DNA of 48,276 nucleotides from Anaerolineae bacterium (GTDB lineage: Bacteria > Chloroflexota > Anaerolineae > DTLA01): assembly GCA_029907165.1 (NCBI GenBank), contig JARYMK010000003.1, positions 1-48,276 on the forward strand, written 5' to 3'. Every line of letters begins with the position of its first letter. The stretch's first letter is position 1. Of this stretch, positions 10,879-48,126 are shown one piece after another. The translations under genes were made by a program, and so were the position numbers. Under the pieces are notes generated by a model. The model searched no databases and was not told the origin of the DNA. It saw only the letters and a program-made list of their open reading frames with translations.

Positions 10879-10902
10879 CCGTAAGCGCTATCGGCGAGTG
10901 GG

Positions 10903-11517: not shown

Positions 11518-11713
11518 AGTGCGTTTGGCTCCAGATTGAATTGAGATGCAGCCAGTATAATATCCCCTAATGAGTGCAAAGTCAAATCACCGAAGAGCCT
11601 GATGCAGACGCTGGAAGGCACGCCTGCGATTGATCGTCTGGGCATCATGTGGCCTTTTTAAGGGTGTGCCCCCACCGTGCTGTGCTGGCTGAGGAGATAG
11701 GAGGGGGCGGTCA

Positions 11714-15214: not shown

Positions 15215-15274
15215 GGGATGCGTCCCCTCGCGGGACAGGTGCCAAGCCCGCCCGCGGACACTCCGAGATTCGGC

Positions 15275-16534: not shown

Positions 16535-16557
16535 TCCCGTTGCCTCCCGAAAAATCT

Positions 16558-19877: not shown

Positions 19878-19963
19878 AGATTATCATTGGTGTTGTTGCC
19901 TCACTGCTTCCTCGTCGCCCGAAACACTTGGAAGGCTGCTTGTACCAACCGAGGAGGTGTAAG

Positions 19964-22900: not shown

Positions 22901-23925
22901 GGGGGCGTGAAGAGCACACGGTTGAAAGGGATATTCCCGCCGGTGCGCACGATGTGGTGCTTGAGGTCTACGAGATAGATGGCTGGGCCGCGGCGAAACT
23001 CTCCTGGCAACTGCTGGGCAGCAATGCGCCCTCCATTGGGAGCATTCAACCCGCCTGCGGCCGCAGCGACGCCTACCAAACCGTCAACTTCCAGACTGTG
23101 GCATCCGACCCCGATGGATGGCAGGACATCAAAATCATCTACTTTGTGGTCAATACCGCACCATCTTTTGCTGGCGGGGCGGCAGTGGCGTACAACGCCG
23201 AAATCAACCGTATGGTGATGAGGAACGAGAGTGGCACATCGTGGCTCGTGGGCGGGGCGCCAGGCTCCTCGGGCACGCTTGAGACGTCGCGCGCTCGCCT
23301 GGACATCGGGGCAAGCAGCAGAACTGTGGCGGGGAATCAAATGACTCTCACTTGGAGTCTGCAATTCAAGGCGCCGATGACAGGGCCTCAGAATCTGTAT
23401 ATGCTCGTGGTGGATAGGGCGAACAGACACACTGGCTGGCAGGTGGTTGGTTCGTGGGGAGTCGGCACCAGCGGCTCGCCGCCGTGCGTGGGCGCGGTAA
23501 CGCCGTCCAGCGGGCAGAGTGCGGCAGGGGTGCAAGCGCTCGTGGATACCGAATTCGGCGACCCGGATGGCTGGGAGGATCTGAAGATCGGGTACTTCTT
23601 GATCGCGCCGATACCGAACGCCAATTCGGACTGTGTTTACCTGGCGTACAACCAGGATGTGAACAAGATACTCCTGCGCAACGACCAGAACAACGCATGG
23701 TTGGGCGGATTCGCTCCGGGGACAAACGCCACGATCCAGAACAGCAATGTGATCGTTGACGTAGCCGACTGCTCGGTGAGCCATACAGCGCAGGGCCTTA
23801 CCGTCCGCTGGGCATTGCGCTTCAAGAATGAGTTCCGCGAGACTTACACCATGTACGCGATGGCGTTGGACAACCGCAACTACGTGGCCACGTGGCAGAA
23901 GAAGGGTACCTGGACGATACAGTAA
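19964..23925 (+). pseudogene. Large secreted multidomain CHAP cell-wall hydrolase, split into two frames near 22020 (ORFs 19964-22132 and ~22018-23925)
   Basis: GAGGAGG RBS and signal peptide. CHAP motifs QC...GNA..W...GHVAWV...ERNW. Then a Cys-rich module, beta/gamma-crystallin (NDSISSVKV x2), FN3 repeats, a broken PPC domain, a CBM-like domain, a PT linker, PA14 (WRAEYFNN, FSARF, DDGARLYLDG) and two DPDGW.D repeats. Confidence 0.75.
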
Positions 23926-31298: not shown

Positions 31299-32666
31299 TC
31301 ACTCCCCCACCATCACCCGCGCGCGGTGAATCTGCGCCCGCACTGCCTCGGGCGACGTGCCACCCCGCGCCTGCCGCATCCCCGCCGACCGCCCGAAGTC
31401 AAACACGGCGTACAGGTCCTCGCCGAACGCGGGGTGAATCGCCCGGTACTCGGCCAGCGGCATCTGACCCAGGGGCACGCCCAGCGCCTCGGCCCGCTTG
31501 ACCGCCTGGCCCACCAGGTGGTGGCTCTCGCGGAAGGGCACGCCCTGCCGCACCAGGTAGTCGGCCAGGTCGGTGGCCAGCATCCCGTCGTCCAGGGCCG
31601 CCGCCATCCGCTCCGCATTGACCTTCAGCGTGCGGATGATGCCCGCCGCGATGGGTAATTCCAGCGCCAGCGTGTCCACCGCGTCAAACAGCGGCTCCTT
31701 GTCTTCCTGTAGGTCCTTGTCATATCCCGACGGGATTCCCTTCAGCGTGGCGAGGAATCCCGACAAGTGGCCGATGAGCCGCCCCGCCTTGCCGCGCATC
31801 AGTTCCAGCGGGTCGGGGTTCTTCTTCTGCGGCATCAGGCTGGAGCCGGTGGAGTAAGCGTCGTCCAGCGTTACGAAGCCGAACTCACGGCTGGCCCAGA
31901 TGATGAGGTCCTCGGCCAGCGTGCTCAGGTGCGTCTGCACCAGCGCGGCCCAGGCCAGGAACTCCGCGACGAAGTCCCGGTCGGCGACGGCGTCCACGCT
32001 GTTCTCGGCCACGGCGGCGAACCCCAGTTCGGCGGCCAGCGCCTCGCGGTCAATGGCGAAGGGCGTCCCGGCGATGGCCCCGCATCCCAGCGGCAGGACG
32101 GATGTCCGTCGCGCCACGTCAGCCAGCCGCTCACGGTCGCGCTGGAACCGCCAGAAGAAGGACATCAGGTAGTGGCTGAACAGCACCGGTTGCGCTTGCT
32201 GCATGTGGGTATAGCCGGGCATGAGGACGTCCAGGTGCGCCTCGGCCTTGTCCACGACAGCCCGCTGAAGGTCGGCAAGCGCCGCATCCAGTGCGCGCAT
32301 CTGCTCCAGCAGGTACAGGCGCAGGTCGGTGGCTACCTGGTCGTTGCGCGAGCGGCCGGTGTGGAGTTTGCCCGCCGTCGGCCCGATGAGTTCGCCCAGC
32401 CTGCGCTCCACGGCGGTGTGGATGTCCTCGTCGCCGGGCTGGATTTGGAACGTGCCCGCGTCAAACTCGGCGCGCACCTGCTCCAGGCCCGCCACGATTT
32501 GGTCGCGCTCGGCGTCGGTGAGCAGGCCCGCCCGCGCCAGCGCCCCCGCCCACGCGATGCTGCCGCGGATGTCCGCAGCGTACAGCCGCACGTCAAAGGC
32601 GATAGAGTCGCCAAAACGCCGCATGGCATCATCTGGCTTGCCGGAAAACCGCCCACCCCAGAGCAT
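31299..32666 (-). CDS. argH: Argininosuccinate lyase
   Basis: [45 protein letters not shown] and [10 protein letters not shown]. Confidence 0.97.
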
Positions 32667-32707
32667 GGCCCGTTCCTCGCTTGAAGGTCGTTCCCTCCGC
32701 ACGGGTT

Positions 32708-32740
32708 CTCCTTGCGCACTCCCGCCCTCTCGGCGGTGAA
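32708..32740. repeat. Repeat family A, single degenerate arm in the argH leader
   Basis: Reverse strand ttcaccgccgagagggcgggagtgcgcaaggag, located between the TATAAT at 32767-32772 and the argH start. Confidence 0.55.
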
Positions 32741-32805
32741 TGCCGCGTCATCCGTGCGGCTAGCTGATTATACCGTTTGGCCTGCGTCGCGCGCAAAACG
32801 GCCTT

Positions 32806-33732
32806 CTACTCCTCGCAGATGGGCGCAAATAGCCCGGCCCAGTAGCCCAGCACCTTCTGGGCGCGGCAGATGGCCAGTTCGGGGGGCTGGCCGGCCCGCC
32901 GTGCCGAGACCCACGCGGCCGGCTCACGCACGACAGCAAGCCCTGTCCGCGCTACGGCCATCCCCAGCGCGAAAGCCCAGCCTCGGTGGATGCGGTCCAG
33001 CAACGCTAACGTCTTCCCTTCCCACCAGGCGCGGCGGTGCAGGAAGGCTGGCGTGAGCCGCGACGCCGGGATGATGTGGTGGACGACGGCGCGGGGCGTG
33101 TAGGCCACCGTGCCCCCCGCGCGAAGCACGCGGCGGAACAGGTCTATCTCCTCGCCCGACAGGAGCGAGCCGGGTTGCCGTCCCAGGGCCGGGCGGAATA
33201 GGCCCACGCGGTCAAATACGAAGCGACGGATGGCCAGGTTCGCGCCGCATGGGAATATAGGCCCGCGCAGGGAGTGGATTTCATCGCCCAGGTCTATGAT
33301 GCTGAGCAAGTAGCGCAGTTGGGGATGCAGCCAGGCGGGCGCTTCGCCGGGCCAGCGGGGGAGCACGCGCCCGCCCAGGCACCACGCTCCCGCGCGCTCC
33401 AAGTCCTCAGCCATCGCCGCGATCCACCCCGGCGCGGCCACGGCGTCGTCGTCCAGGAACGCGAGGGCGTCGCCCTGGGCGTGGGCCACGGCGGCGTTGC
33501 GCGCCCGCGAGAGGCCGGGCGTCGGCTCGCGCACCACACGCACGCGCGCCACCAGACTGTCCGGGAGCGTAACCCGGGGCACGGGGTTGTTATCCACGCA
33601 GAGGATTTCCACGCGCGCGCCCGCGGGCGGTTCCTGGGCTGCCAGCGACGCCAGCACATCAGCCAGATGCGGGGCCTCGCCGTAGGTGCACACCGCCACG
33701 GTTATGGCGCGCACGGGCCTGCCATCGGTCAT
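32806..33732 (-). CDS. Glycosyltransferase family 2
   Basis: VAVCTY, VDNN, GLSRARN, FLDDDA, GANLA and GEEIDL. Confidence 0.9.
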   Translation of the reverse strand: MTDGRPVRAITVAVCTYGEAPHLADVLASLAAQEPPAGARVEILCVDNNPVPRVTLPDSLVARVRVVREPTPGLSRARNAAVAHAQGDALAFLDDDAVAAPGWIAAMAEDLERAGAWCLGGRVLPRWPGEAPAWLHPQLRYLLSIIDLGDEIHSLRGPIFPCGANLAIRRFVFDRVGLFRPALGRQPGSLLSGEEIDLFRRVLRAGGTVAYTPRAVVHHIIPASRLTPAFLHRRAWWEGKTLALLDRIHRGWAFALGMAVARTGLAVVREPAAWVSARRAGQPPELAICRAQKVLGYWAGLFAPICEE

Positions 33733-35210
33733 GGCTGCGTACCCGTTTTCGCGGCGAAAGCTTCAGGCAGCGCCATCAGAGGCCAGAAGACCCAGCCCAC
33801 CGTCGGGTTGTTCAGCAAGTCGGCGGAGAGGCTGTTGACCAGGTAGCCAGCGGCCATCGCAAGAAACGCCGCCGCAAGGAGCGACACGGGCAGGTCGGAC
33901 GCGCACCGCCAGAACCCGAATAGCCGCCGCGCCAGCGCGCCCCACAACCACACGAAAGCGCCAAGCCCCAACAACCCCATTTCTGCGCATACGCGCACGA
34001 AGTCGTTGTGCGGCGTTACTGCGGACCCTACCAACCTGGGGGACTGGACGGGAAAGCCGCCGAGGCCAAGGCCGACCAGGGGGCGTTCCATCGCCAGAGT
34101 AGCAGCGAACCGCCACAGGCTCAGCCGCCACGAGATGGAGTTCAGCGCGGGGGCGGGGCGGGGCGACGGCACCGTCGGGCCTGCCTGCGGCGTGCCGGCG
34201 AGGGGCGGCGTTGGAGTAGGACGAGGAGGCTTCACTTGCCCTGCGGGCACGGGTTCCACAGTGCGGTACAGGAACGGTGTGAGCAAGTCCTGAATGCGGC
34301 CGGCCAGCAGCACCACGACGAGGAAGACCACAGCCATCCCCACCAGCCCCGCGCGCACGCCGGCGGTCTCGCGCCGCGCTACGAGTGCCAGCACGATGAG
34401 TGAGCCGAACATGGCGAGCGCCGGGCCGCGTGAGTACGAGAAGAACAAGAGCGCCAGGCTGGCGATCACCCAGAACCCCAGCAGCGCCCTGGTCTTCCCG
34501 CGCTCGCTGATTCGGAAAAGGTAGATTGTGAGCGCAACAATGATGCCCAGATACACCCCGTAGGCGATGGGGTGCGAGAGTGTGCCCAGCATGCGGTTTT
34601 GCCCTGGCCCGGCGATGACATTGTGATAGCCCCTGTAGGTGAGTCCCTGGTAGATAGATACGATGGCTGGCCACACGCCGGACGCCACAAGGGCCCCCAC
34701 CCACACGCGGGCGCGGCTGGGCGCTTCGCGGAACAGGTCTGCGGCCACGACGTAGAGGCCGGCCAGCGGCAGCATCCGCGTCCAGTCGCGCAGGCCGGCG
34801 AACGGGCTGGATGAGAAGGGGATGCTGATAAGCCCTGCCGCTAGAAACGCGGCGAAGGGCAGGGTCAGCGGCGCCAGTCTGGGCCGGCGGCGGATGATGT
34901 ACAGCGCACTCAGCGCCGTGATGACCAGATTGGCGAGGCCGGCCTGGTTGATATTGTAGGGCTTGTCTTGGAACAGGACGAACGCCCGGCCCCAATCGGC
35001 GGCCATCACGTTGAGGAACACCAGACCCAGCGTGCCCGCGAAGGGGTTGACAACGAAGACCGCCGTGGCGATCCCCGCCCACGCGAGGAACATCCCGTAG
35101 GGGATGCCAACGACCCCCGCCACTGCGGCGCTCACCGCAAGCCACGCGATGGCAAGGGCAATCCATGTGCGCCTTGGAAGCGTCAGTTTGAAGAGAGGCT
35201 CGCTCGCCAT
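33729..35210 (-). CDS. O-antigen ligase / Wzy_C family membrane protein
   Basis: Many TM helices, RMLGTLSHP, SYSRG, WRLSLW...PLVGLGLGGF and PHNDFV...EMGLLG. Start MASEP after AGGAGA. Confidence 0.85.
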   Translation of the reverse strand: MASEPLFKLTLPRRTWIALAIAWLAVSAAVAGVVGIPYGMFLAWAGIATAVFVVNPFAGTLGLVFLNVMAADWGRAFVLFQDKPYNINQAGLANLVITALSALYIIRRRPRLAPLTLPFAAFLAAGLISIPFSSSPFAGLRDWTRMLPLAGLYVVAADLFREAPSRARVWVGALVASGVWPAIVSIYQGLTYRGYHNVIAGPGQNRMLGTLSHPIAYGVYLGIIVALTIYLFRISERGKTRALLGFWVIASLALLFFSYSRGPALAMFGSLIVLALVARRETAGVRAGLVGMAVVFLVVVLLAGRIQDLLTPFLYRTVEPVPAGQVKPPRPTPTPPLAGTPQAGPTVPSPRPAPALNSISWRLSLWRFAATLAMERPLVGLGLGGFPVQSPRLVGSAVTPHNDFVRVCAEMGLLGLGAFVWLWGALARRLFGFWRCASDLPVSLLAAAFLAMAAGYLVNSLSADLLNNPTVGWVFWPLMALPEAFAAKTGTQP

Positions 35211-35295
35211 AGATTCTCCTTTCTGTCCTGTGGCGTGGTCTTGTCCCTCACGGGCCCGAAGACCGGCAGACGATGACATCCGATGCCGGCGTTGC

Positions 35296-36279
35296 CTATG
35301 CGTCTCCGACGGCTAGCGCGTGAATTTCCCGCGCCACGCGCAGGGCAGCCTTCCCGTCCAGCGGCCCTGCGTAGGCCGGCAGGAACGCCTCGCGGGCGCG
35401 TGCCAGGCGCTGGCGTGCGTCTCCGTCTTGGAGCACTTCCCGGAGACGCCGGGTGAGTTCCTGGGCGCTCTGTGCCCGGAGCGCAGCGCCGGTTTCTGAG
35501 TACGGGATGGGTTCGGGCATGATGCCCAAGTCCAGCAGCACCACCGGCTTGCCGAGGGCGATGGCCTCCAGCGCCGTGGACGAGATGAGCGTAACCAGGA
35601 CATCCGCCCTCCACAGCAGGCTCATCACATCCGCATCGCGGGTCATCGTCCATTCGGGCGAGAAGTCGTCGCCCAGCCAGCGGCGCGTCTGTTGCAGGTC
35701 TTCGGCAGGGTGGAGTTTGGCGACCAGGTGATGCCCCGCGCCCAGGCCCCTCACGCCGTCGGCTACCGTGCGCCAGATGCTCCTGGCCTCCGCCTCGCCG
35801 CAAACATTGTAGCGCAGGTATGGCTGCGAACAAAATAGAACGATCCTCTCGCCTTCGGGAAGATTCGGGGCATCCGGCCCTTCGTCCGGCGCGGTAGCCT
35901 GCCGCATGGCGTGGAGGGCGTCGTAGCGGGGCTGCCCGGTAACAGTGATGCGCTCGGCCGGGACCCCCTGCCCGGCCAGCCAGGAGGCCACGGCATCGCC
36001 CATGACGGCGATGCGGTCCGCGCCGTTCTGGCCGTAGGGTTTGGGGTCGGGCAGGCGCAAGCCGAGCAGGGTCAGCGCAGCGCGGGCCACGCTCCGTGGG
36101 AGCGACACGGGCGGCGCGGGCATTGGCCGCAGGGCGATGACGCCGTCCTGCACGAGGAGCGACGGGATGCCCAGGCGACGCGCCTCGGCGATGAACAGCC
36201 GCTCCAGAATCCCCATGTCATTGCCCAGGATGACGACGCTGGGGCGCTCCGCACGCAGGAACGTTCGGACAGCCCGCCG
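35296..36279 (-). pseudogene. 5'-truncated GT-B fold polysaccharide biosynthesis protein (CDP-glycerol glycerophosphotransferase / UDP-GlcNAc 2-epimerase-like)
   Basis: Similarity begins abruptly at RRAVRTFLRAERPSVVILGND. Motifs GIPSLLVQDG, VTGQPRYD, KLHP.E, SSTALEA..LGKPV and DGKAA.R. No proper N-terminus. Confidence 0.7.
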
Positions 36280-36785
36280 CCCCTGTCCGGGTTGTAGGCC
36301 ATGCGGAACAGCGTCCTGTCGCCCCGCGTGAAGACGATGAAGTGCCAGTCCACGCGCTCCAGCAGTTGTTGCGCCAGGTCGGCGACTTCCGCGTCCTGGT
36401 CAAAATAGGCGGCGGCAGTGATGACCCCGTTCAGGCAGAGGGCGGTGTCTATCGTGGAATACTCGCACTTGCGGAACCGCTCGCCGTTCTCCATGTGCAG
36501 GAAGTGGGCGAAGAATCCGCGATGGTGCGCGGCGGCATTGCAGAGCGTGCGGAGCGTCCCGCGCACGATGGCGCGCGCCTCGGCTGCGGGCAGGAAGCCG
36601 CGCTCGCAGGCGATCACCCACGCGGTGAGCGCGAAGCCCACCGCCGCGATGGATGCGACGCTCGGCCGCTTGGTGGAATCCGCCGTCAGCCCGAAGCCGG
36701 GGCTGTCGGGGGTCAGATTGGTGTAGTCCAGGAAGAATTGGAGGGAGCCCCTCAATTCCCTGTCAAGAAGCATAGGGGCCTTCAT
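36276..36785 (-). pseudogene. 3'-truncated glucoamylase-family (GH144-like) glycoside hydrolase, ~170 aa N-terminal fragment
   Basis: SPGFGL, ASIAAVGFAL, GFFAHF, EYSTIDTA, VDW and MAYNPD match the N-terminal half of 37783-39171. The similarity then stops. Confidence 0.8.
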
Positions 36786-36786
36786 G

Positions 36787-37776
36787 TCATATCACCGGAT
36801 GCGACGCGAGATTTCGGCTGGAAGACTGGCGCTGAATGAACTCGGCGGGAATACGGCGGGTATCAAAGGCAGGCCCGTTTTCCAGGAAGTCAATCAGGCG
36901 CGCGGCGGCGGCCGATCCCCATCCGACGCGCGAGACGCGGACTGTGGACAGGGATGGCTGCATGTACCGGGCGAGGGGAATGTCATCAAAGCCAACGATG
37001 GCCACATCGTCGGGCACGCGAATGCGGTGCTCCTTCAACGCCTCAATGAACCCGATGGCCATCTGGTCGTTGGCGCAGAAGATGGCCTCTGGCAAGTTGC
37101 CGGACGCAATCGCCCCTTGCGCGGCCTCGTAGCCGGACGGCTGGGTGAAATTCCCCTCGTAGCAGACGACCGAGAGGCCGTTCCTCTCCGCCTCTTCCAG
37201 GAAGGTTGTCCGCCGCTCGGCGTTGTCAAACGAATCGGCAGCGCCGGACACGAAGGCGAGCCGCCGCGCTCCCTGCTCGTACAGGTGCCGGAACACCTCC
37301 CGCGTGCCGGTGGGGTTATCCACCAGCACCGGAAAGACAAAATCGGCTTCCATGTAGCGATCCAACGTAACGATGGGGAATCGCTTCCAGGCCAGCCGCG
37401 CGATGAGGTCGCTGGAAATCTTCGTATCAAACACGATGGCGCCATCCACCTGGCGGTAGGTCAGGATGCGGCGCGTGGTGCGCGTCTCGGGGCAGATGAG
37501 GAGTTCATAGTCGGTTTGCAGGATGGCGTTGTGGATGCCCTCCAGAACCTCCTCGTAGAACAGGCCGCCCAGTCGGGTGATGAAGACCCCGATGGTGCGC
37601 GTTCTGCGCTTCCTGAGGTGCCGCGCGAACGCATTCGGGTGGTAGTTGAGTTCTTCGGCTGCCGCCAGAACGCGCTGGCGGGTGGCCTCGCTGATGTTCC
37701 CCTTGCCATTCAGCGCGTAGGACGCGGTGGTGATGCTGACACCTGCCCTCTTGGCGACGTCTTTGATGGTGATCAT
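36787..37776 (-). CDS. LacI family transcriptional regulator
   Basis: TIKDVAKRAGVSITTAS, LNYHPN, AIFCANDQMA and VPDDVAIVGFDD. Confidence 0.95.
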   Translation of the reverse strand: MITIKDVAKRAGVSITTASYALNGKGNISEATRQRVLAAAEELNYHPNAFARHLRKRRTRTIGVFITRLGGLFYEEVLEGIHNAILQTDYELLICPETRTTRRILTYRQVDGAIVFDTKISSDLIARLAWKRFPIVTLDRYMEADFVFPVLVDNPTGTREVFRHLYEQGARRLAFVSGAADSFDNAERRTTFLEEAERNGLSVVCYEGNFTQPSGYEAAQGAIASGNLPEAIFCANDQMAIGFIEALKEHRIRVPDDVAIVGFDDIPLARYMQPSLSTVRVSRVGWGSAAAARLIDFLENGPAFDTRRIPAEFIQRQSSSRNLASHPVI

Positions 37777-37782
37777 CGGCGC

Positions 37783-39171
37783 TTACTCTGCTCGCTTCGT
37801 GAACTGAAGGCGCTCCAGGCCCTTCTGGATGTGCGCGTTCCGCATCGTGATGGTGTAGATGAAATCGCTCTGGTAGTTCGCCAGCATGAGCAGGGAGATG
37901 CCCTTATCTATGCCGATCACGTCGGTCGCGAACCAGCCTCTGCTCAAGTTGAACGCATCGCGGAACCCGTAGGGGCCTTTGAGCCGCTCAAACGAATAGT
38001 AGTGTACCATAGCCTGTTCGGCCTGTTTCGGCAAAAACACGATGGAGCCAATGGCGCCGGCCGGCGGCACCGTATCGTCCACGTAGTGCGACTTGTAGTC
38101 ATAGCCCGACGGCGGCGCGCCGTAGCGGCCCTCGTATCCATCGGGGCCGTCGCATGCCGTCAGCCCCCAGGCCAGCGGGCCGATGGTTTCGTACTTGTCA
38201 TCCACGGCCACGGCGAAATTGTAGTGCGCCAGCGAAGCCTCCACCGAGTTGTCAAACCAGTTGACCCCGTCCCGGTCGTAGTAGTTTCTGAAATCTATCC
38301 ACGCGTGGCTGAACTGGTAGGTGAAAATGGAGCCGAACCACGAGTGGATGAACGGCTTGCCGTCCCCGTACTTGGCGCGGTGTCTTGTGAACGAGTAGTA
38401 AACGGCGGGGTCAATGGGGTGAGTATCCGAACCGGCCGCGAGAATGTAGAGCATCAGTTGCTCGGCGTAGAAATCCCAGTATCCCTCAAACCCCTTTTCG
38501 GGCCTGTAGGCCATGTAGAACATCTTGCGCGACTTGTCCACGAACCACGGCCAGTTGACCTCATCGTAGATGCGCTGGGCCTTGGCCTCAATGTCGCCGC
38601 CGAAGTACTCGCCCACCGACAGGACGCCCATCAGGAGGATGGCCGTGTCAATGCTGGAGACCTCGCTGTTCCAGGCCCGCTTGCCGCTACGCATGTCCAG
38701 GTAGTGGTAGTAGAACCCGTTGACGCGCTCCAGCGAGAGCAGCGTGTCCAGCGTCCCGCTGACCCGCTCGTAAACCTCCTGCTGGGACACATACCCCTTC
38801 TGGATGCCGACAAGGTATGCGGTCAGCCCGAAGCCCACCGACGCAATGCTGGAAATCCCCGGCGAGCCCGGATACCGGTCGCGGATGAGTCCGTAGCCCG
38901 GGCTGCCCGCTTCGGTGTTGGCCTGCTCCCAGAAGAATCGGAATGCCCCCGACATCTCAAACTCAATCACGTCGCCCACGGGCACCGGCGTCGGCGTGGC
39001 CGTCGGCGCGGCCGTTGGCGTGGGCGTCGGCTCGGGTGTCGCCGACGGGGTCGCGGTGGCCGCCGGCGTGTCGGTCGCCGCGGGGACGACCGCGGTCGGC
39101 GTGGCCACGGGCGCAGCGCACCCGCTCACCAGCAGCAGCAAGACAAGCGTCAGGGCAAGGGTTTTATTCAC
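37783..39171 (-). CDS. Lipoprotein glycoside hydrolase, glucoamylase family (GH144-like endo-beta-1,2-glucanase)
   Basis: Lipobox LVSGC and PT linker. Motifs SIASVGFGL, EVSSIDTA, YAEQLMLY, FTYQFSHAWIDFR, WGLTACDGP, GPYGFRDAFN and IGIDKG. Confidence 0.85.
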   Translation of the reverse strand: MNKTLALTLVLLLLVSGCAAPVATPTAVVPAATDTPAATATPSATPEPTPTPTAAPTATPTPVPVGDVIEFEMSGAFRFFWEQANTEAGSPGYGLIRDRYPGSPGISSIASVGFGLTAYLVGIQKGYVSQQEVYERVSGTLDTLLSLERVNGFYYHYLDMRSGKRAWNSEVSSIDTAILLMGVLSVGEYFGGDIEAKAQRIYDEVNWPWFVDKSRKMFYMAYRPEKGFEGYWDFYAEQLMLYILAAGSDTHPIDPAVYYSFTRHRAKYGDGKPFIHSWFGSIFTYQFSHAWIDFRNYYDRDGVNWFDNSVEASLAHYNFAVAVDDKYETIGPLAWGLTACDGPDGYEGRYGAPPSGYDYKSHYVDDTVPPAGAIGSIVFLPKQAEQAMVHYYSFERLKGPYGFRDAFNLSRGWFATDVIGIDKGISLLMLANYQSDFIYTITMRNAHIQKGLERLQFTKRAE

Positions 39172-40171
39172 CGACGATCCCCGTCCTTTCAACGGATTCC
39201 ACGAACCACTTCTGCAGGATGAAGTACATGATGAGCAGCGGCAGGATGTTCAGGAACGTGCCGCTCAACTTGACCGCCTCGTTGATGCGGTCAAAGATGT
39301 TGACCATCCCCGGCGGGTACAGGTTCTCGTAGGCCTGGACGAACTTGGACAGTTGCATGGGCAAGGTCTGAATGCCACCCTCCAGGAAAACGACCGTCAG
39401 GTAGGTCTCGTTCCAGTACCAGACGACGGAAAAGATGAAGGACACGATGTATGCGGGGATGGCGCTTGGCACGGCGATCTTGAGGAAGACCTTGAGGTCG
39501 GAAGCGCCGTCCAGCCGCGCCGCCTCTTCCAGCACCTTGGGCAGCGACAGGAAGGTCTGGTAGAAGATCAGGATGAAGATCGCGCTCCGGAACCCCTGAC
39601 CCATGGACGCGGGCAGGATGAGGCACAGGATGTTGCCCAGAAGCCCCAACTGCCGGTATGTCAGCATCTGCGGGATGACCGTGTTCTGGGGCGGGATGAT
39701 GAACGTGGCCAGGATGAGCGCGAACAGCAGGCCCTTGCCCCAGAACCGGTAGCGCGCGAGGCCGTAGCCGATGACCGAGCACACCATGGTCTGGATCACC
39801 GACGGCACGACGCTCACGAGGATGGAAGCGAGCAGGGTTGACGGGTAGTTCAGGACGCGGAACGCCTTGACATAATTGCCTAAGTACCATTGGGTCGGCA
39901 CCCATTGCACCATCGGGTTCAGCAAGTCGGTGGGACTCTTGAAACTGGTGATGAGCATGAACAGGAGCGGGTACAGGTAAACGAACCCGATGGCCACCAG
40001 CACGGCGTAGAGCAGAACGGTAACGATGAGGCCGCGCCTGGATCGCGAGCCGAAGAGGAAGCCCCTCACGGTGTCCTGATGCTGCCGGGCCCACCGCGCG
40101 GCGTTCGCCACGTGCGTCGCCACCAGGCCGAGCCGAGCGTTGTCTCTCAGAGATCGCAGTCGGGATGTCAT
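39164..40171 (-). CDS. Carbohydrate ABC transporter permease (MalG-like)
   Basis: GYGLARYRFWGK, the EAA loop LEEAARLDGAS and WYWNE. ATGA overlap with the upstream permease. Confidence 0.92.
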   Translation of the reverse strand: MTSRLRSLRDNARLGLVATHVANAARWARQHQDTVRGFLFGSRSRRGLIVTVLLYAVLVAIGFVYLYPLLFMLITSFKSPTDLLNPMVQWVPTQWYLGNYVKAFRVLNYPSTLLASILVSVVPSVIQTMVCSVIGYGLARYRFWGKGLLFALILATFIIPPQNTVIPQMLTYRQLGLLGNILCLILPASMGQGFRSAIFILIFYQTFLSLPKVLEEAARLDGASDLKVFLKIAVPSAIPAYIVSFIFSVVWYWNETYLTVVFLEGGIQTLPMQLSKFVQAYENLYPPGMVNIFDRINEAVKLSGTFLNILPLLIMYFILQKWFVESVERTGIVGE

Positions 40172-41058
40172 GCGGACACCCTCCTGACGCGCGATGCCAA
40201 CAGAAGGTAGATGAGCAGCAGGATCAGCACAAGGGCCGCCAGGTACAGGAAGGACATGGCGCTGGCGTAGCCGATCCCGCCCCTGATGACATACGTCTGG
40301 CTGTAGATGTACTTGACGACCTTGTTCTCGGAGAAGTGCGACAGCGTGATGACAGTGTAAATCGCCACGACGATGTTGGTGGTGGACAGGGATGGCAGGG
40401 TAATCTTCCAGAACGCCTCCCACGCCGATGCGCCGTCAATCGCCGCCGCTTCGTAGATGCTCTTGTCTATCTTCTGCAGGCTGGCCAGATAGATGAGAAT
40501 CTGCACGCCGGAAAACCACAGGATGAGGATGAAAGAACTCAACAGGTACTGTACCGGATTCCGGATGGCGGTCGGGAGTTGCGCCAGAAAGTCCAGCAGC
40601 GCCGCCGACCGGGCAATCTGGGGCACGGAGGCCGCGCCCTGTGCCACGAGTTCCTTGATCACCGGGCCGCTGGTGATGACCACCGGCAGGAAGAAGATAA
40701 TCCTGAATGCTCCCCTGAGCCTGAACTTCAGATTCAGGAACATGGCGATGAGCATGGAGAAGATGAGCACAATCGGCACGGATACCAGGGTCTCAATACT
40801 GTATTCCACCAGCAGTTGCACGAAGGTAGGGTCGGTGAACAGGGCTCGCGTGTAGTTCTTCCACTCGGCGTACTGCATTCGGATTCCCGTGGCCTCCACG
40901 ACCACGTCGTGAAGGCTGTACCGGAACGTCTGCACCAGCGGCGTCAGCGTGAAAAGGGCGAACCCGATGATCCAGATGAGGACGAACAGGTATCCGTACG
41001 ACGCCTCGCGGAGTCGGTACCTGGTCTGAATCGGGCGGAAACCCCTGCGCACGTTCAT
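40168..41058 (-). CDS. Carbohydrate ABC transporter permease (MalF-like)
   Basis: FRIIFFLPV, YLASLQ and YEAAAIDGAS.W..FWKITLP. Confidence 0.93.
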   Translation of the reverse strand: MNVRRGFRPIQTRYRLREASYGYLFVLIWIIGFALFTLTPLVQTFRYSLHDVVVEATGIRMQYAEWKNYTRALFTDPTFVQLLVEYSIETLVSVPIVLIFSMLIAMFLNLKFRLRGAFRIIFFLPVVITSGPVIKELVAQGAASVPQIARSAALLDFLAQLPTAIRNPVQYLLSSFILILWFSGVQILIYLASLQKIDKSIYEAAAIDGASAWEAFWKITLPSLSTTNIVVAIYTVITLSHFSENKVVKYIYSQTYVIRGGIGYASAMSFLYLAALVLILLLIYLLLASRVRRVSA

Positions 41059-43247
41059 GGCACTGCCTCCCTGAGGAGCGCATCCCTGGCCGGGATGACA
41101 AGGCCGTCGGCGCGGAAGGGCTTGTCGTTGTAGTTGACGATGATCTGCTTCCCGTTGCTATACGTGGTCGCCACCACTCCTTCGGCCAGATTCTGCCTTG
41201 CCACGATACTGGCGCCCTTGACGGGGGCCAGCAAGCGATTCAACCATGCGTAACTCTCGCGGATTTCGTCCCCCAACTGGTGGAAGGCCGAGAGGTAAAT
41301 CCAACTGGAGCGGGTGTTGAGAATCCGCGCCGTCTCCTCGTAACTGACGAAGAACGACGGATACACGCCGAAATCGGCATGGCGCAGAAGGTCGCCCCGC
41401 ACGTCGGGGGAAAAGTTCAGCGCAGTGCCGAAGTAGGGGACGTAGCCCGACAGCGCGATTTGCAGGAACGGCACAGGCCCACTGGTGTACGTGTAGCCGC
41501 TGTCCGTCAGGGGCATGTCGTAGTACGCGGCTGCGTAGCCCAGCGCGTAATCGTTGGGCGTGTAGAATGCCAGGCTTCCGTCGGTCTGGGCCAGCAGTTC
41601 CCGATAGTGGCCGATGGCGTCCTCGCGGTTCACGACGCGGCCACCCCTGAAGTCGCTGTAGAGCGTGTCGCCAATCCCGTCCAGCGCCAGGCCGGCCTGG
41701 AGTTTGGCGCTGACGTCCCGCCGCAGGGAAGCGAGGCGATCCCGCAGGGCCGCAAGAGTGAAGTAATAGTTGGCTTTGTTGCGGTTGTAGCCCTCCATGT
41801 ACAGGCCCGTGATGGACATCGCCAGGTCGTAGCGCGAGGAGTAACCGCCTTCTCCCTTCAGCGCAGCCTGCGGGTCCAGGTAGAGGTAGAACGTGCCTCC
41901 CTTGGCGGCCACCTGCTCGGAGAACGCCCGCAACTCGGCGAGCGTGCCCAGTTTGGGGTCCAGCGCCAGGCGGGCGGGCGGCATGGCGGAAGCGCCCAGG
42001 GGTTGCCAGCCGTAGTAGATGACCTGCGGACTTCCCACGTCCAGCGCCGCGAACATGTCGCTCATCTGGCGGATCGTGGTCATGGGGATGGTGCGGTACC
42101 AGAACAGGACCCTTTCGCGTTCCGCGCCCAGGAACTCAAGCCTAATGCCGATCCTGTCGCCCACGTCGGCGCGCTTGTGCAACCGCCCGCTCTGGAGCAG
42201 GTACTGCTGGTAACTCCGCGCCATGCCCACGTAGTCCGCGTCCTTGCCCGCCAGGAACCGGTAGTGAACCTTCACGTCAAACGCATTGGTTCGGGGCTGC
42301 AAGACCGTAACCCCGTCGCCGGCGCGGCTGGTGGGCTGGAAGTAACTCTCGTTGTAGATGAAGGTATTGTAGATGAAATTGAAATTCGTGATGATGCCCG
42401 AGGGGTGCGCCCGGATTTCCCCGTAAGATGCGCCTTTCTCCAGGACGGCGATGTAGGCGTTCTGCCCCGGCCCGTGCACCATGCCGATGACCGGGATGGA
42501 CATGGAGTAGGGTCGCCGAACGGTGGGGTCATACGGCAGGCTGGTGAGCATCCCCAGGTCGGCGCCGTAGTATCGCCCGTAGAACATGTTCTGCGCTTTG
42601 GTCGTGGCGGCGAACTGGATGAGGGTGCCGCAGCCATCGGGGATGAACATGTAGCCCGGCACCTGGTCGCCCCGGGTCGCGCCCATGAACGGGTACAGGT
42701 GGAGCAGGCCGAGTTTGAACTCCCCACGTTCCGCGATGGAACTGAACGGCACTTCCACGCTCACGCCTGTATCCTCCAGGCGGAGCACAAGCCCCACCGA
42801 GATAGCCGGCTGGCTGAAGGTTACAAGCGCCTCAATGCCCTGGTCAATCGGCTTCACGTCCAGGGTATGTTCGGCGTTGGTGATGGACGCGCGTCGGCTG
42901 ACGGCCTTCTGGTCCAGGTAGTCAATGCTGAAGCCGCTCTGCGCGAACGCCTGCCACGTCCTGTTGAGGCGGTCGCCGGGCGCCAGTTCGTCCAGATTGG
43001 AGTGCCAGACGTATCCGTTCCGCTTGTCCACCACCTTGAACGCCAGCGTGGTCTTGTTCACGTAGAGTTGGAACATGGCGTTCTCGGCAACGCGGTCGTA
43101 GGACGCCGGTATCTCGCCGTCCAGCCGCCGGAACAGCGCCGAACCTGAGCCGGCGCCTGTGGCCGAGGCCGCCGCCACCTCGGGGCACAGCCCCAGAATC
43201 AGGCCGATCGCCATCAGAACCCGAGCCAGTCTCCACACCCTAGCCAC
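41055..43247 (-). CDS. DUF5696-like secreted protein
   Basis: Signal peptide, [45 protein letters not shown] and TTYSNG..IIVNY. Sits in its typical ABC-operon position. Confidence 0.75.
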
Positions 43248-45246
43248 GCAGTCTTACCTCTCGCGAAATCGTTACAACGAAGTCAAACAGTTGATTGAAC
43301 AGCACGTACAGGATGTACCCCGTGAGCAGCATGACCGCCATCGTGAACACCGTGTACAGGATGTTGCGGATGGTCTCCGACACGGAGTAGTTGTGAATCT
43401 CCTTCACCATCAGGAAGAGCATCAGCGCGACCCAGGCATCCACCAGCCGGATTGAGAAGGTGTAGATGAAGACCTCGTTGAGCGTCAACACGTTGGACAG
43501 CAGCGCGATGGGCAGGGTGAACAGGGCGTAGGGGAACAGGCTGTAGGCCGTGCCGATGATCACGTCTCGGACGCGGCCCTCGCCGTCGCTGATGGTGGAG
43601 ACGAGGTAGTTGGCGCTGTTCCACAGCACGATGAGCAGGGCCGAGTACAGAATCTCATTCTGCGGCCGGATGGCCGACGGGACAGGGTAGCGGTTGAAGA
43701 TGAACCCCGTCAGGTACAGCGCCAGCACCCTGCTCGCGATCACCCAGGCGTACAGCAGGAAGGCGAAGGTCAGGCTCCCGCGCAGTTTCTGCTTGATGTA
43801 GTAGAAACTATCCGCCGGCTGTTTGATGAAGCGGAACATGAACACGAAATCGTCCACAAGCCGCACCCGCGCCAGCGCCCTCACGCCGTTCCTGACGGGG
43901 GCAAACCACCCGTAGCGGCGGTCAACACGCGCCAGCGCGCTCTGCACCACGCCCAGGCCGATCATGGCCAGGATGGCGCTGCCCAGGTACCGCTGCAACA
44001 GGTTGTTGCGCAGTTCCCAGAAGGCTTCGGAGTAGCCGTTCCTGTCTTCCGCATACCGGTAGTTCACGAACGCCTGGGCGTAGTCGCCTTCTTTGAAGTA
44101 GGCGTCGGCGATGGCCTGATAGGCCATTCGGTACGCGCCGTTGTACTTCAGCACCTGCTCAAAATACGGCTTGGCTTCCCTGTAGAAGCCCTCGGTGTAC
44201 AGGCGAACACCCTCGTGAACCAGGGTGGCAAACCTGGTGGCCCGATAGATGACGATGGCGTTCTTGTCCTTGTCCAGCACGTAGAGGTCCTTGTCGTGGT
44301 ACGCGATGGCGGTGGGATTGCGCAGGGTTCCCAGGCGCTGTTCGCCCCTATCCTTGGCCCCGAAGACGAACAGCAGCATGCCCTTGACGTCGTACTCGTA
44401 GATCAGCCCGTCTGCGTCCACGGCGACCACCAAGCCGGTGTCGCTGACGTCAATATCGCGGAACGTGGTTGACCCGTAGGCGTCCGGGAAGATGTTGTCG
44501 CCCGCCACCGTGAAGCGGCGGATCGCCCGCGTTCGCGCCGTGCCGGCCGTTACGGTGAACACCATGGAATCCGGGTCAATGGCCACGTTGGACGGCGAGG
44601 CCGCCTCGCTCTTGATGAACTGGGCCAGTTGCTCCTTGGTCAGGAACATCCTTTGCAAAATCATCTTGAGCGACATGGTGGCCGGGTTCGCGCCGAAATA
44701 CCCGATGAAGTTGCCGTTGAGGTTCATCTTGACCAGGCCGTTCACCGAGCCTTCGCTGACCACGTAGAGATTCTGGCGGACATCCACGGCGATCTTGCGG
44801 GGCAGGAATTGCGTGTCCTTGCCGAAAAGCGGTTCGCTGGGCCGGCCAAACTGCTTCCGAACGTTCCCGTCGGAATCCAGAATCACGATGGCGTTGGCCT
44901 TGGCGTCGGCCACGTACAGCGTCCCCTCACCGTCCACGTAAATCCCCGTTGGGCCTTTCAGCGCGCCCTTGCCATACGAGGCGACCTCGGCGAAATCCCG
45001 CAGAACGAGAATGCGGGCGTTGCCGGTATCCGCGATGTAGATGGTGCCATCGCGGGCGATGAACATGTCTTCCGCGCCGGATATGGGGAGGTCCACCTCG
45101 GCGACGGGGATGTAGGCGTCCTGGGTCAGGTGCAGCCGCCCGCCCGGCCCCATGGCGCGGGTGGTGTAGGGGGCTTCGGCGCTTGCGCCCGCTGCCAACG
45201 CCACGTATGCGATTAGCACCGCGAGGATCAGCGCGATACGCTTCAT
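43240..45246 (-). CDS. NHL-repeat beta-propeller + TPR + Yip1 membrane domain protein
   Basis: Signal peptide, [11 protein letters not shown] and [14 protein letters not shown]-like [27 protein letters not shown]-terminal multi-TM domain with DGEG. Confidence 0.8.
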
Positions 45247-45959
45247 TTGATTCCCGAATGCGACATGGTGCTCATGACCTGGCTCTGCAGGAAGATGAAC
45301 ATGAGCAGGTTCGGCACGAACATGATGAGCGTGGCGGCTGCGGCAAGGCCCTGGCCGGCCACGATGTTGGCCCCCGAAGCGGTGGACGTCAGGGTGGTCA
45401 GGTAGAACGCAAAGGTCTTCAGCGTCTCGTTGTTGATGTACAGCGCCGACGTGTCCGCGTTGTTCCAGGTGGCCTGGAAGGTGAGGATGGCGATGGTGGC
45501 GATGGCTGGCTTGATCATCGGCAGGACAATCCGCCAGTAGATGTCCAGGTCGGATGCGCCGTCAATCTGGGCGGCCTCAATGACCTCGTCGGGGACGCCG
45601 TCGGTGAACTGCTTCATCAGGAAGACGCCCACCGGCATGACCAGGGCGGGGAGGATGTGCACCAGGAACGAGTCCATCAGGTGCAGCCGCACGATGACCA
45701 GAAAACGCGGAATCGTTACCGCGATGGGCACGAACATCAGGGCCACGGTGTTGATCGCGAACAGCGTCTTCTTGAGTTTGAACCGCTTCTTGGAGAGCGC
45801 GTAGGCCGCCGCCGTGGAGACCAGGATGGACGCAGCCACCGATGCCGCCGTGATGAGAACGCTGTTGAACAGGTAGCGGCTCACGGGCACGCCCGAAGTT
45901 GACATAAGACCGAACAGGTCCGTGAAGTTCTTGAGCGTGGGGTTGACGACGAAGAAGCC
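45243..45959 (-). pseudogene. 5'-truncated carbohydrate ABC transporter permease (MalG-like)
   Basis: [25 protein letters not shown] and [10 protein letters not shown]. The first TM helix is missing and an in-frame TAG lies at 45984-45986. Confidence 0.8.
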
Positions 45960-46057
45960 CGGCGTGCCGGGACCGAGCAGAACCTAGCCCCGCGAGGCCG
46001 CTACAGCACGTCCACCCCGGGCGAACGCGCACAGTCTCCGCTGCAGCAGAACTCCGC

Positions 46058-46669
46058 CTACTCCTTCGCCACGCCCCACAGGCGCACGGTGCCATCCATG
46101 GACCCCGATGCCAGGAGGGAGCCATCGGGCGAGAACGCCACGCTCTCCACCCGATGCGTGTGTCCCTCCAGGGAGCGCACGAGGGAGCCGTCGGCGACGC
46201 GCCAGACCCGGACGGTGTAGTCGGCCGACCCCGAGGCCAGGAGGGAGCCATCGGGCGAGAACGCCACGCTGTACACAGGGCTAGTCGTCTCCAGGAAGCG
46301 CGCTTCCTTCAGCGTTCCGGCATCGTACAGGTATATCCCAAGGGAACTTCCAGCAGCCAGGAGCCGCCCATCGGGGGAATATGCCACTTGCATTATCGCG
46401 CCCTTGCCCCAGCGCGCCAGTTGCGTCATCCGCTCGGCGTTGGACGGGGAGATGACGCCCGCCGGTACCGGCACCGGCGTACCGGCCAGTACAGGGAGTT
46501 GCGGCGTGGTCGTGGATGGTACTGGCGTATCGGTCGGGTGCGGCGTGGTGCTCGCTTTTGCCCGATACGGCGGCGGGGCCGTGGGCGTCGCCTTCGGCGC
46601 GCAGCCGATGAGCAGCGATGCGACGACGACCAGTGTCGCCAGAATGGTAACAATTTTCCTTGCAGACAT
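46058..46669 (-). CDS. WD40-repeat lipoprotein with only ~3 repeats
   Basis: AAGGAG RBS, lipobox LIGC and PT linker. VAYSPDG and VAFSPDGSLLASGS.D.TVR.W x2. Confidence 0.8.
   Translation of the reverse strand: MSARKIVTILATLVVVASLLIGCAPKATPTAPPPYRAKASTTPHPTDTPVPSTTTPQLPVLAGTPVPVPAGVISPSNAERMTQLARWGKGAIMQVAYSPDGRLLAAGSSLGIYLYDAGTLKEARFLETTSPVYSVAFSPDGSLLASGSADYTVRVWRVADGSLVRSLEGHTHRVESVAFSPDGSLLASGSMDGTVRLWGVAKE
46110..46270. repeat. 35-bp identical direct repeat at 126-bp spacing inside the WD40 gene
   Basis: gccaggagggagccatcgggcgagaacgccacgct at 46110-46144 and 46236-46270. Confidence 0.85.
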
Positions 46670-46784: not shown

Positions 46785-47900
46785 TTACACTTCCCAAGGC
46801 CCCCGCAGCAACTGAACGACATCCTCCACCGCGACCTGGAAATACTCACGCATCGTTTTCTCGTCGCGCTCGTACTCCCCGCCGCCGGTTCCGTCGCCAA
46901 GACGTTCCCGTATCTCACGCGGCGTCAGGCTGTGGTAGTCGGTCCAGTCCACATCGGGCTTGCGTCCCGCGGTGTCGGGCGTCATCACGGGCCTGCGCTT
47001 CTCGGCCTGGTGGACCTCCTGCTCTCGCCTTGCGCGCTCCTCTGCTTCCGCGCGGTGCTGGGCCTCTTGCTGCCGTCTATTCTCTGCCTCTTGCAGTCCC
47101 GTCTGCAGTGCCGCGGCCATTTCCGCCGCGGTCTCATACCGCTCCCAACGGTCCTCCTGGAGCGCCTTCGCCAGAATGTCCTCCAACCACGATGGCACTG
47201 CAGGGTTCAGCGAACTGGCCCGCATCCCCGGCCGAACCCTCTGGTACTTCTTCTCCGTAAGCATCTCAAACAGCACACACCCCACCGTGTACAGGTCGCT
47301 GGCGGGGGTCAAGTACCCCAGCGTCCGATCCTGCTCCGGCGACCTGTACCCCAATGTCCCTGGATGTGGCTGTCCCGTTCCCATGGATCTTCCGCTCTCC
47401 CCCGTCTGCGCCAGCCCGAAGCCGGCCAATTTGGCGTGACCATCCTCGGTGAACAGGATGTTGCTGGGTTTGATGTCTCGGTGCACGATATCCAGTTTCT
47501 CGTGCGCCACCTCCAGCGCAGCCAGGACCTCCAGCGTTACGCGCACCGCCTCGTCCACCGGCAGGGGGCCTTTCTTCAGCCTGTCGGCTAGGGTTCCACC
47601 GCCGCAGTATTCCATGACGAGCAGGGTCTGGCCCTCGTGCTCTTCCACCGTCAACACGCGCACGACATTGGGCACATCCGCCTTGAAGATGCGGCCGCTG
47701 AGGCGGAGTTCGCGCTGGAAACGCGTCTCCAGTTCCTCGCGCTCCATGGGCGACAGGACGGGCAGGGGTTCCTTGATGGCGACCTCCAGCCCGCGTTTCA
47801 CCTCTTGCGCCAGCCACACGCGGGATTGCCCGCCTTCACCGAGCAGGCGGATGATTTCATACTTGCCGTTGCAAATGGTCTGTCCTTCATCAATAGGCAT
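46785..47900 (-). CDS. Hanks-type Ser/Thr protein kinase, possible pseudokinase (DFG->GFG)
   Basis: LGEGGQSRV, VAIKE, LVMEY, HRDIKPSNIL, KLAGFGLA, GTLGYRSPEQ and SDLY. Coiled-coil tail; GGAGG RBS before MPIDEG. Confidence 0.88.
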   Translation of the reverse strand: MPIDEGQTICNGKYEIIRLLGEGGQSRVWLAQEVKRGLEVAIKEPLPVLSPMEREELETRFQRELRLSGRIFKADVPNVVRVLTVEEHEGQTLLVMEYCGGGTLADRLKKGPLPVDEAVRVTLEVLAALEVAHEKLDIVHRDIKPSNILFTEDGHAKLAGFGLAQTGESGRSMGTGQPHPGTLGYRSPEQDRTLGYLTPASDLYTVGCVLFEMLTEKKYQRVRPGMRASSLNPAVPSWLEDILAKALQEDRWERYETAAEMAAALQTGLQEAENRRQQEAQHRAEAEERARREQEVHQAEKRRPVMTPDTAGRKPDVDWTDYHSLTPREIRERLGDGTGGGEYERDEKTMREYFQVAVEDVVQLLRGPWEV

Positions 47901-48126
47901 GGCGGACCCTCCGAAGGAAAACAAGAGGAATGGAACAGGTGAGCAACGATCGCAGTCGCCTTTTTGCCAACGAGATGCAGGACTCGGAGCCGATGGCGCA
48001 GGGTGAGATGTCACGGCGGTTGCACATAGCGGTTAGCGACAAGCGAACAAGCGTTGTCATGAATGTCCCCCGGCGCGAACGTTCTAGCATCATTAATATC
48101 ACATTCGGCACCCTGGTGCAAGGGAT

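Follow-up and report, generated by a model that had tools for sequence, protein, structure and literature searches.

What does a gene set made up of ABC permeases, two large accessory proteins of obscure role and two glucanase-like genes do for its host, and is it present there as a complete system? This question is raised by a whole 48,276-base contig (JARYMK010000003.1, our C237), hereafter called the window, which belongs to an Anaerolineae-type metagenome-assembled genome (a bin of 3.2 Mb in 303 contigs, scored 98% complete). On its minus strand, a segment of ~9.7 kb (36276-45964) carries eight genes that form the middle of a 14-gene cluster known from relatives. They encode permeases of the CUT1 family of ABC transporters, a membrane protein with NHL, TPR, and Yip1 domains (NHL-TPR-Yip1), a DUF5696 protein, two proteins related to glycoside hydrolase (GH) family GH144, and a LacI-type repressor. 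Judging by homology, the segment very probably represents the middle 9.7 kb of a cluster for the utilisation of beta-1,2-glucan, which is orthologous to Chy400_4165-4178 of Chloroflexus aurantiacus Y-400-fl.

The complete cluster is found in relatives of the host. A DUF5696 gene is present in 7 of 41 genomes including this one, among them three of the four other genomes of the genus as well as members of other families. The full gene order starts with GH94, an ordinary solute-binding protein (SBP) of 450-485 amino acids (aa), a giant SBP of 950-1030 aa, the upstream permease pair (F1, G1), NHL-TPR-Yip1, and DUF5696, and continues with the downstream permease pair (F2, G2), a GH144 with signal peptide, LacI, a GH144 without signal peptide, GH35 (GLMA-like), and GH3. 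A survey of Chloroflexota-type loci, restricted to one genome per species, yielded 279 confirmed relatives, of which the best 80 loci were examined and a gene was scored only where the contig extends far enough. The seven core genes were found in order in all 54 loci that could be scored, and the ordinary SBP, a lipoprotein, in 56 of 56. GH94 was present in 51/55, GH144 in 56/65, LacI in 55/62, the second GH144 in 39/58, and GH35 in 45/52. The two SBP genes lie directly upstream of the permease pair (56/56 and 58/58 loci). Among the best 80 public records nearest to the DUF5696 gene of the window, 79 titles name Chloroflexota or Anaerolineae and one names Pleurocapsa.

The same 14-gene order, including the GH144 pair with and without signal peptide, has been drawn for the SGL cluster of C. 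aurantiacus Y-400-fl in supplementary Fig. S1 of PMC13731917 (FEBS J 2026). The relatives show this order, whereas the window, in an Anaerolineae-type genome, holds only the central 8 of the 14 genes, the two at the ends being truncated. According to the same paper, Chy400_4166 is a crystallised beta-1,2-glucan-binding SBP and Chy400_4174 is an active endo-beta-1,2-glucanase. The ordinary SBP in the locus of one relative (L023), a gene that lies outside the window, matches PDB entry 22hh at E 5e-212 over residues 33-479, which places an ortholog of the crystallised binder in that locus. In the window itself, the first GH144 protein is composed of a lipobox (LVSGC), a Pro/Thr-rich linker, and a catalytic domain; it contains the family domain and matches characterised members (8xul at E 3.6e-66; 5gzh, an endo-beta-1,2-glucanase, at E 3.2e-39), as expected of a GH144 member by sequence. 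It is a probable surface endo-beta-1,2-glucanase. Because of this orthology, of the SBP to a crystallised binder, of GH144 to solved enzymes, and of the gene order as a whole, the assignment to beta-1,2-glucan is well supported.

An initial annotation, made from the DNA letters and their open reading frames (ORFs), had already proposed a beta-1,2-glucan locus with probably two permease pairs, and the 14-gene order and SBP match of the relatives bear out the former, their full loci the latter. It had also named the locus as the best candidate for an undescribed system. This is too strong, as the gene order is drawn in PMC13731917 and appears in Table 3 of PMC8579813; in the parts of both papers considered here, the accessory proteins are left without a role. 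The locus type is already in print, and the window is a further member of a published cluster type. The main text of PMC13731917 makes no mention of the locus tags 4170 and 4171. Its abstract describes transport as the least understood part of beta-1,2-glucan metabolism.

Genes were assigned from ORFs and their translations together with Pfam and NCBIfam profiles (Table 1), which confirmed that the genes listed in the initial annotation lie on the minus strand in the order given there. Adjacent genes overlap by 4-8 bases (ATGA type) or are separated by gaps of 1-6 bases, and the start of the GH144 lipoprotein gene overlaps the preceding permease gene by 29 bases. The start of G2 was set at the ATG overlapping the preceding stop codon (the raw ORF extends to 40423). 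For G1, the ATG-started ORF spans 45905..45243, and homology to the full-length ortholog reaches 45962-45964. All three permeases contain the EAA motif for coupling to the ABC ATPase, as read in their translations. MalF-type and MalG-type CUT1 permeases are both found in the window; F2 and G2 share 65-73% and 71-79% identity with their orthologs, respectively. The upstream pair is incomplete in the window, with F1 absent and G1 short of ~66 residues, and no SBP gene was found among the Pfam matches of the window ORFs, leaving the CUT1 permeases there without a binding protein. The RbsR-like NCBIfam match of the LacI gene scores under the equivalog cut-off. The reference ortholog of the second GH144 fragment is a PF10091-positive protein of 414 aa from the locus of a relative (L009), and the 237-aa ORF that holds the fragment gave no Pfam match. 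Scans for promoter-like sites (0 versus 2.6 expected) and terminator-like sites (5 versus 8.0 expected) were uninformative at 62% GC.

Table 1. Genes of the glucan segment in the window, listed from the right to the left end.
Gene product	Position	Strand	Evidence
5'-truncated MalG/UgpE-type CUT1 permease (G1, second of upstream pair)	45243..45964	-	PF00528 E 1.6e-15
NHL-TPR-Yip1 membrane protein, 668 aa	43240..45246	-	NHL E 5e-12; Yip1 26.6 bits; TPR matches weak
DUF5696 protein, 730 aa, predicted secreted	41055..43247	-	PF18952 E 3e-167
MalF/UgpA-type CUT1 permease (F2, first of downstream pair)	40168..41058	-	PF00528 E 2.5e-9; MalF, UgpA, GlcT matches
MalG/GlcU-type CUT1 permease (G2, second of downstream pair)	39164..40171	-	PF00528 E 3e-9; GlcU E 1.7e-25
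GH144-family lipoprotein, 469 aa	37783..39192	-	PF10091 E 2.9e-60, 204 bits versus cut-off 27
LacI-family repressor, 329 aa	36787..37776	-	PF00356 E 1.3e-21; PF13377 E 2e-36
Second GH144 gene, N-terminal 170 codons, no signal peptide	36276..36785	-	78.8% identity to ortholog residues 1-170

The tight operon described in the initial annotation is right in its gene list; that this copy is cut at both ends had escaped it. G1 aligns to positions 68-274 of the 281 residues of UgpE and shares 98.7% identity with residues 67-305 of the ortholog (305 aa) in the locus of the nearest relative (L011), and because these alignments begin at 68 and 67, the permease must lack its first ~66 residues. At the other end, only residues 1-170 of the 414-aa ortholog are matched by the second GH144 gene before the match goes out of frame, and its reading frame continues past 36275/36276 as unrelated sequence to 36072. 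DNA homology to the loci of three relatives stops sharply at 36275 and 45964. In public hot-spring metagenomes, contigs from a population with ~95% identity span exactly 36275-45964 before they diverge from the window, for example a 23.3-kb contig in run X1 and loose ends at 36275 in runs X3 and X4; flank parts without cover in the public hot-spring runs were not counted as evidence. As both homology limits and the ends of the public contigs fall on the same two sites, the segment is an internal fragment of a larger cluster.

Such cuts in the middle of a gene at both ends stem either from a chimeric join in the assembly or from a genuine rearrangement. In the former case, the organism would have the whole 14-gene cluster, and the contig would join an internal 9.7-kb piece to unrelated flanks; we consider the case for such an artefact to be evenly balanced. 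It is favoured by the breaks, which both lie inside genes, while the six genes wholly within the segment are intact and, where L011 has a counterpart, share 95-99% protein identity with it. Of the missing cluster genes, only the last 112 codons of GH3 were found elsewhere in the genome, at the very start of contig C110, and the remaining parts occur nowhere in the bin despite its high completeness score. The public contigs of the ~95% identical population, which become unlike the window just beyond the two sites, point in the same direction, as do neighbouring pieces of the left flank that align with more than one contig of the nearest relative (31307-32671 to G004:C77 with 95% identity; 32725-33735 and 35531-36238 to G004:C24 with 87% and 67%, respectively). 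The left flank from 31307 to 36238 represents either patchy synteny or a contig with more than one doubtful join. On the other hand, neither junction contains a repeat or shared word of more than 24 bases, the public contigs belong to relatives and not to this genome, and the GC content of the segment (0.621) falls inside the range of the genome's contigs (0.617-0.70). Moreover, no public run contained more than 0.09 of the words sampled from this genome. A foreign island, considered because of the lower GC content, was rejected since flanks and segment are similarly identical (87-95%) to the same relative.

At the core of the cluster lies a cassette of seven genes (giant SBP, F, G, NHL-TPR-Yip1, DUF5696, F, G), which is a fixed unit that is found with various carbohydrate-active enzymes (CAZymes) in Chloroflexota and Bacillota. 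Other Chloroflexota copies with 25-33% identity (L013, L103, L106, and L107) keep the cassette order and have no GH144 or GH94 nearby; L103 and L106 have no second SBP within reach either. One complete Chloroflexota genome contains two DUF5696 genes. The first belongs to a reduced cassette (L105, 4724-12725) that consists only of a weak GHL10-like protein, NHL-TPR-Yip1, DUF5696, F, and G, and that has neither a giant SBP nor an upstream permease pair. The other (L104:8692-10920) has no NHL/Yip1 gene beside it and lies close to genes for an IS110 transposase and a Trp-halogenase-like protein. When 72,556 plasmids were searched with tblastn, two matches came up, both with the cassette. In Paenibacillus cellulosilyticus it is preceded by a UgpC ATPase gene, and in Butyrivibrio fibrisolvens by a GH43 gene, with NHL and Yip1 as separate genes and two SBP genes after the cassette.

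The conservation of the cassette was also followed in metagenomes, where 12 Bacillota-type DUF5696 queries led to 367 confirmed relatives, from which 78 loci were kept and scored with alignment-based profiles. The full nine-domain order was present in all 40 loci with enough flank. Yip1 was found upstream in 66 of 66 loci and the giant SBP in 47 of 47, while an F-type permease (58/59) and a G-type permease (51/51) followed downstream. The co-occurrence of DUF5696 and NHL/Yip1 with double permease pairs, on which the initial annotation had built its proposal, thus holds without exception where contigs allow. For the CAZymes, 94 of the 169 flanking ORFs of the longer loci were run through Pfam, which gave 26 loci after exclusion of near-duplicates. 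GH144, mostly together with LacI and GH35, was found beside the cassette in 11 of these, GH51 and/or GH43 in four, GH13 in two, and GH16, GH31 with GH20, and GH30 with a CBM35 protein in one each; the scanned ORFs of the other six included no CAZyme. Because the neighbouring CAZymes differ between loci, the cassette is not tied to one glycan, and the notion that it is specific to beta-1,2-glucan cannot be kept. EzrA is a protein typical of Bacillota. In one metagenome locus (L133:13092-19755), the GH144/GH35/LacI version of the cassette adjoins an EzrA gene, and the beta-1,2-glucan version may therefore also occur outside Chloroflexota.

A similar arrangement has been reported in the xylan locus xloEFG-X-GH129-axoFGE-... 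of Caldicellulosiruptor bescii, which is listed in Table 3 of PMC8579813 (mSystems 2021) as SBP, two permeases, 'X', 'GH129', two permeases, and SBP. This locus is induced by xylan, and its two CUT1 transporters depend on the shared ATPase MsmK; the deletion of genes in C. bescii is also reported there. Equated by gene labels and order alone, which also fit the Butyrivibrio and Paenibacillus loci, the C. bescii operon is the same cassette, although it serves xylan instead of beta-1,2-glucan and belongs to Bacillota.

DUF5696 forms a large family (4262 clusters of 50% identity at E 1e-3, 1851 at E 1e-30), whose name was not found in the main text of the literature searched. An AlphaFold2 model from 143 sequences (predicted local distance difference test, pLDDT, of 94.6), which replaced an unusable model from five sequences (pLDDT 47), shows a (beta/alpha)8 barrel between two beta-sandwiches, one N-terminal and one C-terminal. 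Foldseek, recommended in the initial annotation in search of a GH fold, did reveal one. GH129 was ranked first (5opq at E 5.5e-33; NagBb 5wzn at E 7.6e-25), followed by GH101, GH36, and GH31. VIA-align gave Z scores of 28.0, 27.8, and 27.3 against the GH129 structures 5wzn/5wzq, 5opq, and 8rzk, with 555-577 residues superposed at a root-mean-square deviation of 4.0-4.3 and 13-17% identity; the next family, GH13, reached a Z of 19.6 over the barrel only. A sequence profile of DUF5696 likewise retrieved GH129 chains from the PDB (E 1.9e-9 to 1.3e-7). The predicted DUF5696 protein thus has the three-domain fold of GH129 (NagBb; ZgGH129, 5opq/8rzk) over its whole length and is a remote homolog in sequence, but it differs in its low identity, its catalytic Asp column, and its genomic context. 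None of the Pfam GH families matched the DUF5696 protein of the window even at E 10, PF18952 being the only match reported.

The residues around the putative active site give a mixed picture. Column 527, which is aligned to the catalytic Asp486 of ZgGH129 (D486N in 8rzk), holds Asp in only 8 of 143 family members (Ser in 32, Asn in 32) and is variable in 69 orthologs (S32, F10, A7). Important to note here is that Asp486 was placed by a HMMER profile alignment and not by structural superposition, which allows a shift of a few residues; in this alignment, DUF5696 does not retain the conserved catalytic Asp of GH129. Enzymes of clan GH-D have their catalytic pair at the ends of barrel strands 4 and 6. 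At these ends, D523 (strand 4) is acidic in 70 and D577 (strand 6) is Asp in 83 of the 143 family members, and each is kept in 66 of the 69 members of the beta-1,2-glucan clade. Strands 5 and 7 end in conserved Asn residues. The family-wide acidic positions are D204 (142/143) and D625 (141/143), whereas at column 590 (codon at 41480-41482), where 124 of 143 members and 54 of 69 orthologs have Asp or Glu, the protein of the window has Gly. In a tree of 39 DUF5696 sequences, 18 GH144-linked and 4 arabinan-linked rows each fall on one side of a branch with 100/100 support, a grouping that kinship of the hosts could explain equally well. The DUF5696 orthologs inspected have AxA-type signal peptides and no lipid anchor.

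The second accessory protein, NHL-TPR-Yip1, consists of a signal peptide, a propeller and TPR region facing outside, and five predicted membrane helices (hydrophobic segments at 416-650). The homolog in L105 scores 38.7 bits for Yip1, and look-alike protein clusters, mostly from Bacillota, carry both NHL and Yip1, with Yip1 in 79-100% of their members. A literature search combining YIP1, NHL, and permease annotations gave nothing relevant by title or abstract opening. For the giant SBP, a profile search located SBP matches only at ~547-860 and coiled-coil-like matches at 413-500; the ~550 N-terminal residues, considered as a possible further SBP domain, gave no such match. The C-terminal half of the giant SBP resembles Lin1841 (5ysb, E 5e-21), and a hint of CBM35 lies far below threshold (E 0.059). 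A lipobox was present in 28 of 34 orthologs of the ordinary SBP, while only 7 of 54 giant SBPs had a lipobox-like motif. A MalK-like ATPase gene was found within reach in none of the 80 and 78 related loci, nor in the locus of the window; four MalK-type OB-domain matches, three of them over the family cut-off, are present elsewhere in the genome.

We take the cell envelope of Anaerolineae to lack an outer membrane. Without this barrier and without a lipid anchor, DUF5696 and the giant SBP would be lost from the cell unless partner proteins hold them. In view of this argument, of the invariant order, and of the overlapping genes, we tentatively infer that the accessory proteins sit with the transporters. 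For Chloroflexus, PMC13731917 leaves the type of envelope open.

From these elements, a route for beta-1,2-glucan can be proposed. By analogy with characterised homologs, the lipid-anchored GH144 endo-glucanase would cut beta-1,2-glucan at the cell surface, and a MalK-type ATPase encoded elsewhere in the genome would drive the permease pairs. In the cytoplasm, breakdown would be finished by the second GH144, a GH35 glucosyltransferase, a GH3 beta-glucosidase, and a GH94 phosphorylase; PMC13731917 likewise suggests that the GH144 without signal peptide, GH35, GH3, and GH94 carry out the cytoplasmic degradation. The LacI repressor would, from its sequence, be expected to control the operon. How the accessory proteins enter this scheme can only be outlined tentatively. 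The Yip1 domain might sit with the permeases, and the propeller and TPR region might hold the GH129-fold DUF5696 at the surface, where it would bind or trim incoming chains. A further-reaching suggestion, which we regard as possible yet rather unlikely, is that the cassette represents an unrecognised class of import machine for bacteria without an outer membrane, in which a Yip1-anchored scaffold and a GH129-derived protein without the canonical catalytic residue couple two ABC translocators and a giant, stalked binding protein. Such a machine might take up large glycans whole, here cyclic beta-1,2-glucans of 17-20 units, and would be the counterpart of the 'selfish' uptake by SusCD.

Several observations weigh against this picture. 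The Yip1 match of the protein in the window (26.6 bits) remains just under the Pfam cut-off of 28.6. The window contains no SBP gene and its first permease is truncated; should the contig prove right, the system would be unable to function in its host. As reported in PMC13731917, Chy400_4167, the full-length homolog of the giant SBP, gave no gel shift with the polysaccharides tested. Finally, DUF5696 may or may not be catalytic, and the protein is not filed as GH129.

The last point leads to a different view of the accessory pair. DUF5696 could be an active extracellular glycosidase of a new GH129-related family that acts on something common to all cassette substrates or is tuned to each of them, with NHL-TPR-Yip1 merely as an anchor or unrelated, so that the pair would be an enzyme module and no part of a transporter. 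The full-length GH129 fold (Z 28; Foldseek E 5.5e-33; profile E 2e-9) speaks for this view, as do the retention of D523 and D577 in 66 of 69 members of the beta-1,2-glucan clade, the 100/100 branches by which DUF5696 groups follow the adjacent CAZymes, and the label 'GH129' given to the gene in Table 3 of PMC8579813. We nevertheless find it doubtful, since the column of the catalytic Asp holds this residue in only 8 of 143 members, the two candidate positions are far from universal across the family (D523 acidic in 70/143, D577 Asp in 83/143), strands 5 and 7 terminate in conserved Asn, and Pfam yields no GH match even at E 10. The tree may only mirror the kinship of the hosts, and the same protein is kept beside CAZymes for alpha- and beta-glycans of unrelated chemistry.

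An improbable alternative, in our judgement, is that the cassette comprises two CUT1 importers of the ordinary kind that work independently, each through a binding protein of its own, and that are inherited together with two unrelated genes and form no joint machine. Both papers describe the membrane genes in such terms, namely as 'two sets of putative type I ABC transporters' (PMC13731917) and as 'two CUT1-family ABC transporters' (PMC8579813), and an ATPase shared in trans is normal for CUT1, with MsmK as an example (PMC8579813). Furthermore, the cassette usually has a second, ordinary SBP next to it, on the upstream side in Chloroflexota (56/56) and on the downstream side in Butyrivibrio. 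With a binding protein thus usually near each permease pair, the earlier supposition that the system needs more than an ordinary binding protein was not borne out. Independent importers would, however, hardly be expected to keep an invariant gene order in every scorable locus (54 of 54 and 40 of 40), even at 25-30% identity and across two phyla, with genes overlapping by 4-8 bases. Two loci (L103 and L106) have no second SBP within reach, and the reduced cassette of L105 retains just NHL/Yip1, DUF5696, and the downstream pair.

Three further known systems invite comparison. The Listeria innocua locus lin1839-1843 (GH94 SOGP, GH3, SO-BP, and two permeases; PMC13731917) shares the substrate class and the sequence of SBP-dependent import followed by breakdown through GH3 and GH94. 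It differs in having a single permease pair and no GH144, NHL/Yip1, or DUF5696, and it binds oligosaccharides rather than polymers or cyclic glucans. In Bacillus, YknW is described as a Yip1-family accessory subunit that modulates the assembly of an ABC transporter, YknWXYZ (PMC4887032). This transporter is a MacB-type exporter for a peptide toxin and YknW has no NHL/TPR ectodomain; it serves as a precedent by description. The likeness to SusCD of Bacteroidota is confined to the proposed task, that is, the capture of large glycans beside a surface endo-enzyme under a locus-specific regulator. A TonB-dependent barrel or a SusD-like protein was not found among the Pfam matches of the locus or of the relatives' loci, and a system of the type in the window would be energised by ATP through ABC permeases.

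The remainder of the contig contains several further features. On the right, a 203-aa protein (46058-46669, minus strand) with a lipoprotein-type signal (LLIGC), a Pro/Thr-rich linker, and WD40 repeats is encoded just downstream of a Ser/Thr protein kinase gene (46785-48014, minus strand), and its gene stops 94 bases short of the right-hand junction with the glucan segment. On the left, an envelope glycosylation group (32806-36216, minus strand) includes a GT2 gene, a Wzy-type polymerase/ligase, and a GT1-like gene that abuts the left junction. A comparable group at 6315-18531 (minus strand) encodes membrane proteins of the DUF4012, TMEM260-like, PTPS-related, and PMT_2 types. Between them, the region 19928-23925 (plus strand), with a GC content of 0.58-0.60 versus 0.64-0.72 around it, encodes a CHAP - beta/gamma-crystallin - fn3 - PPC protein and a PA14-domain protein.

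Taken together, the Chloroflexus cluster type is widespread in Anaerolineae-type genomes, and the rigid cassette that makes up its membrane core exists in other versions too, serving many different glycans in Chloroflexota and Bacillota, gut and rumen organisms among them. Because its binding protein has been crystallised and its large cyclic ligand is defined, the beta-1,2-glucan version is a good system for probing the accessory proteins. If these prove necessary for the uptake of polymers, models of glycan foraging in Gram-positive-type bacteria would gain a new component.

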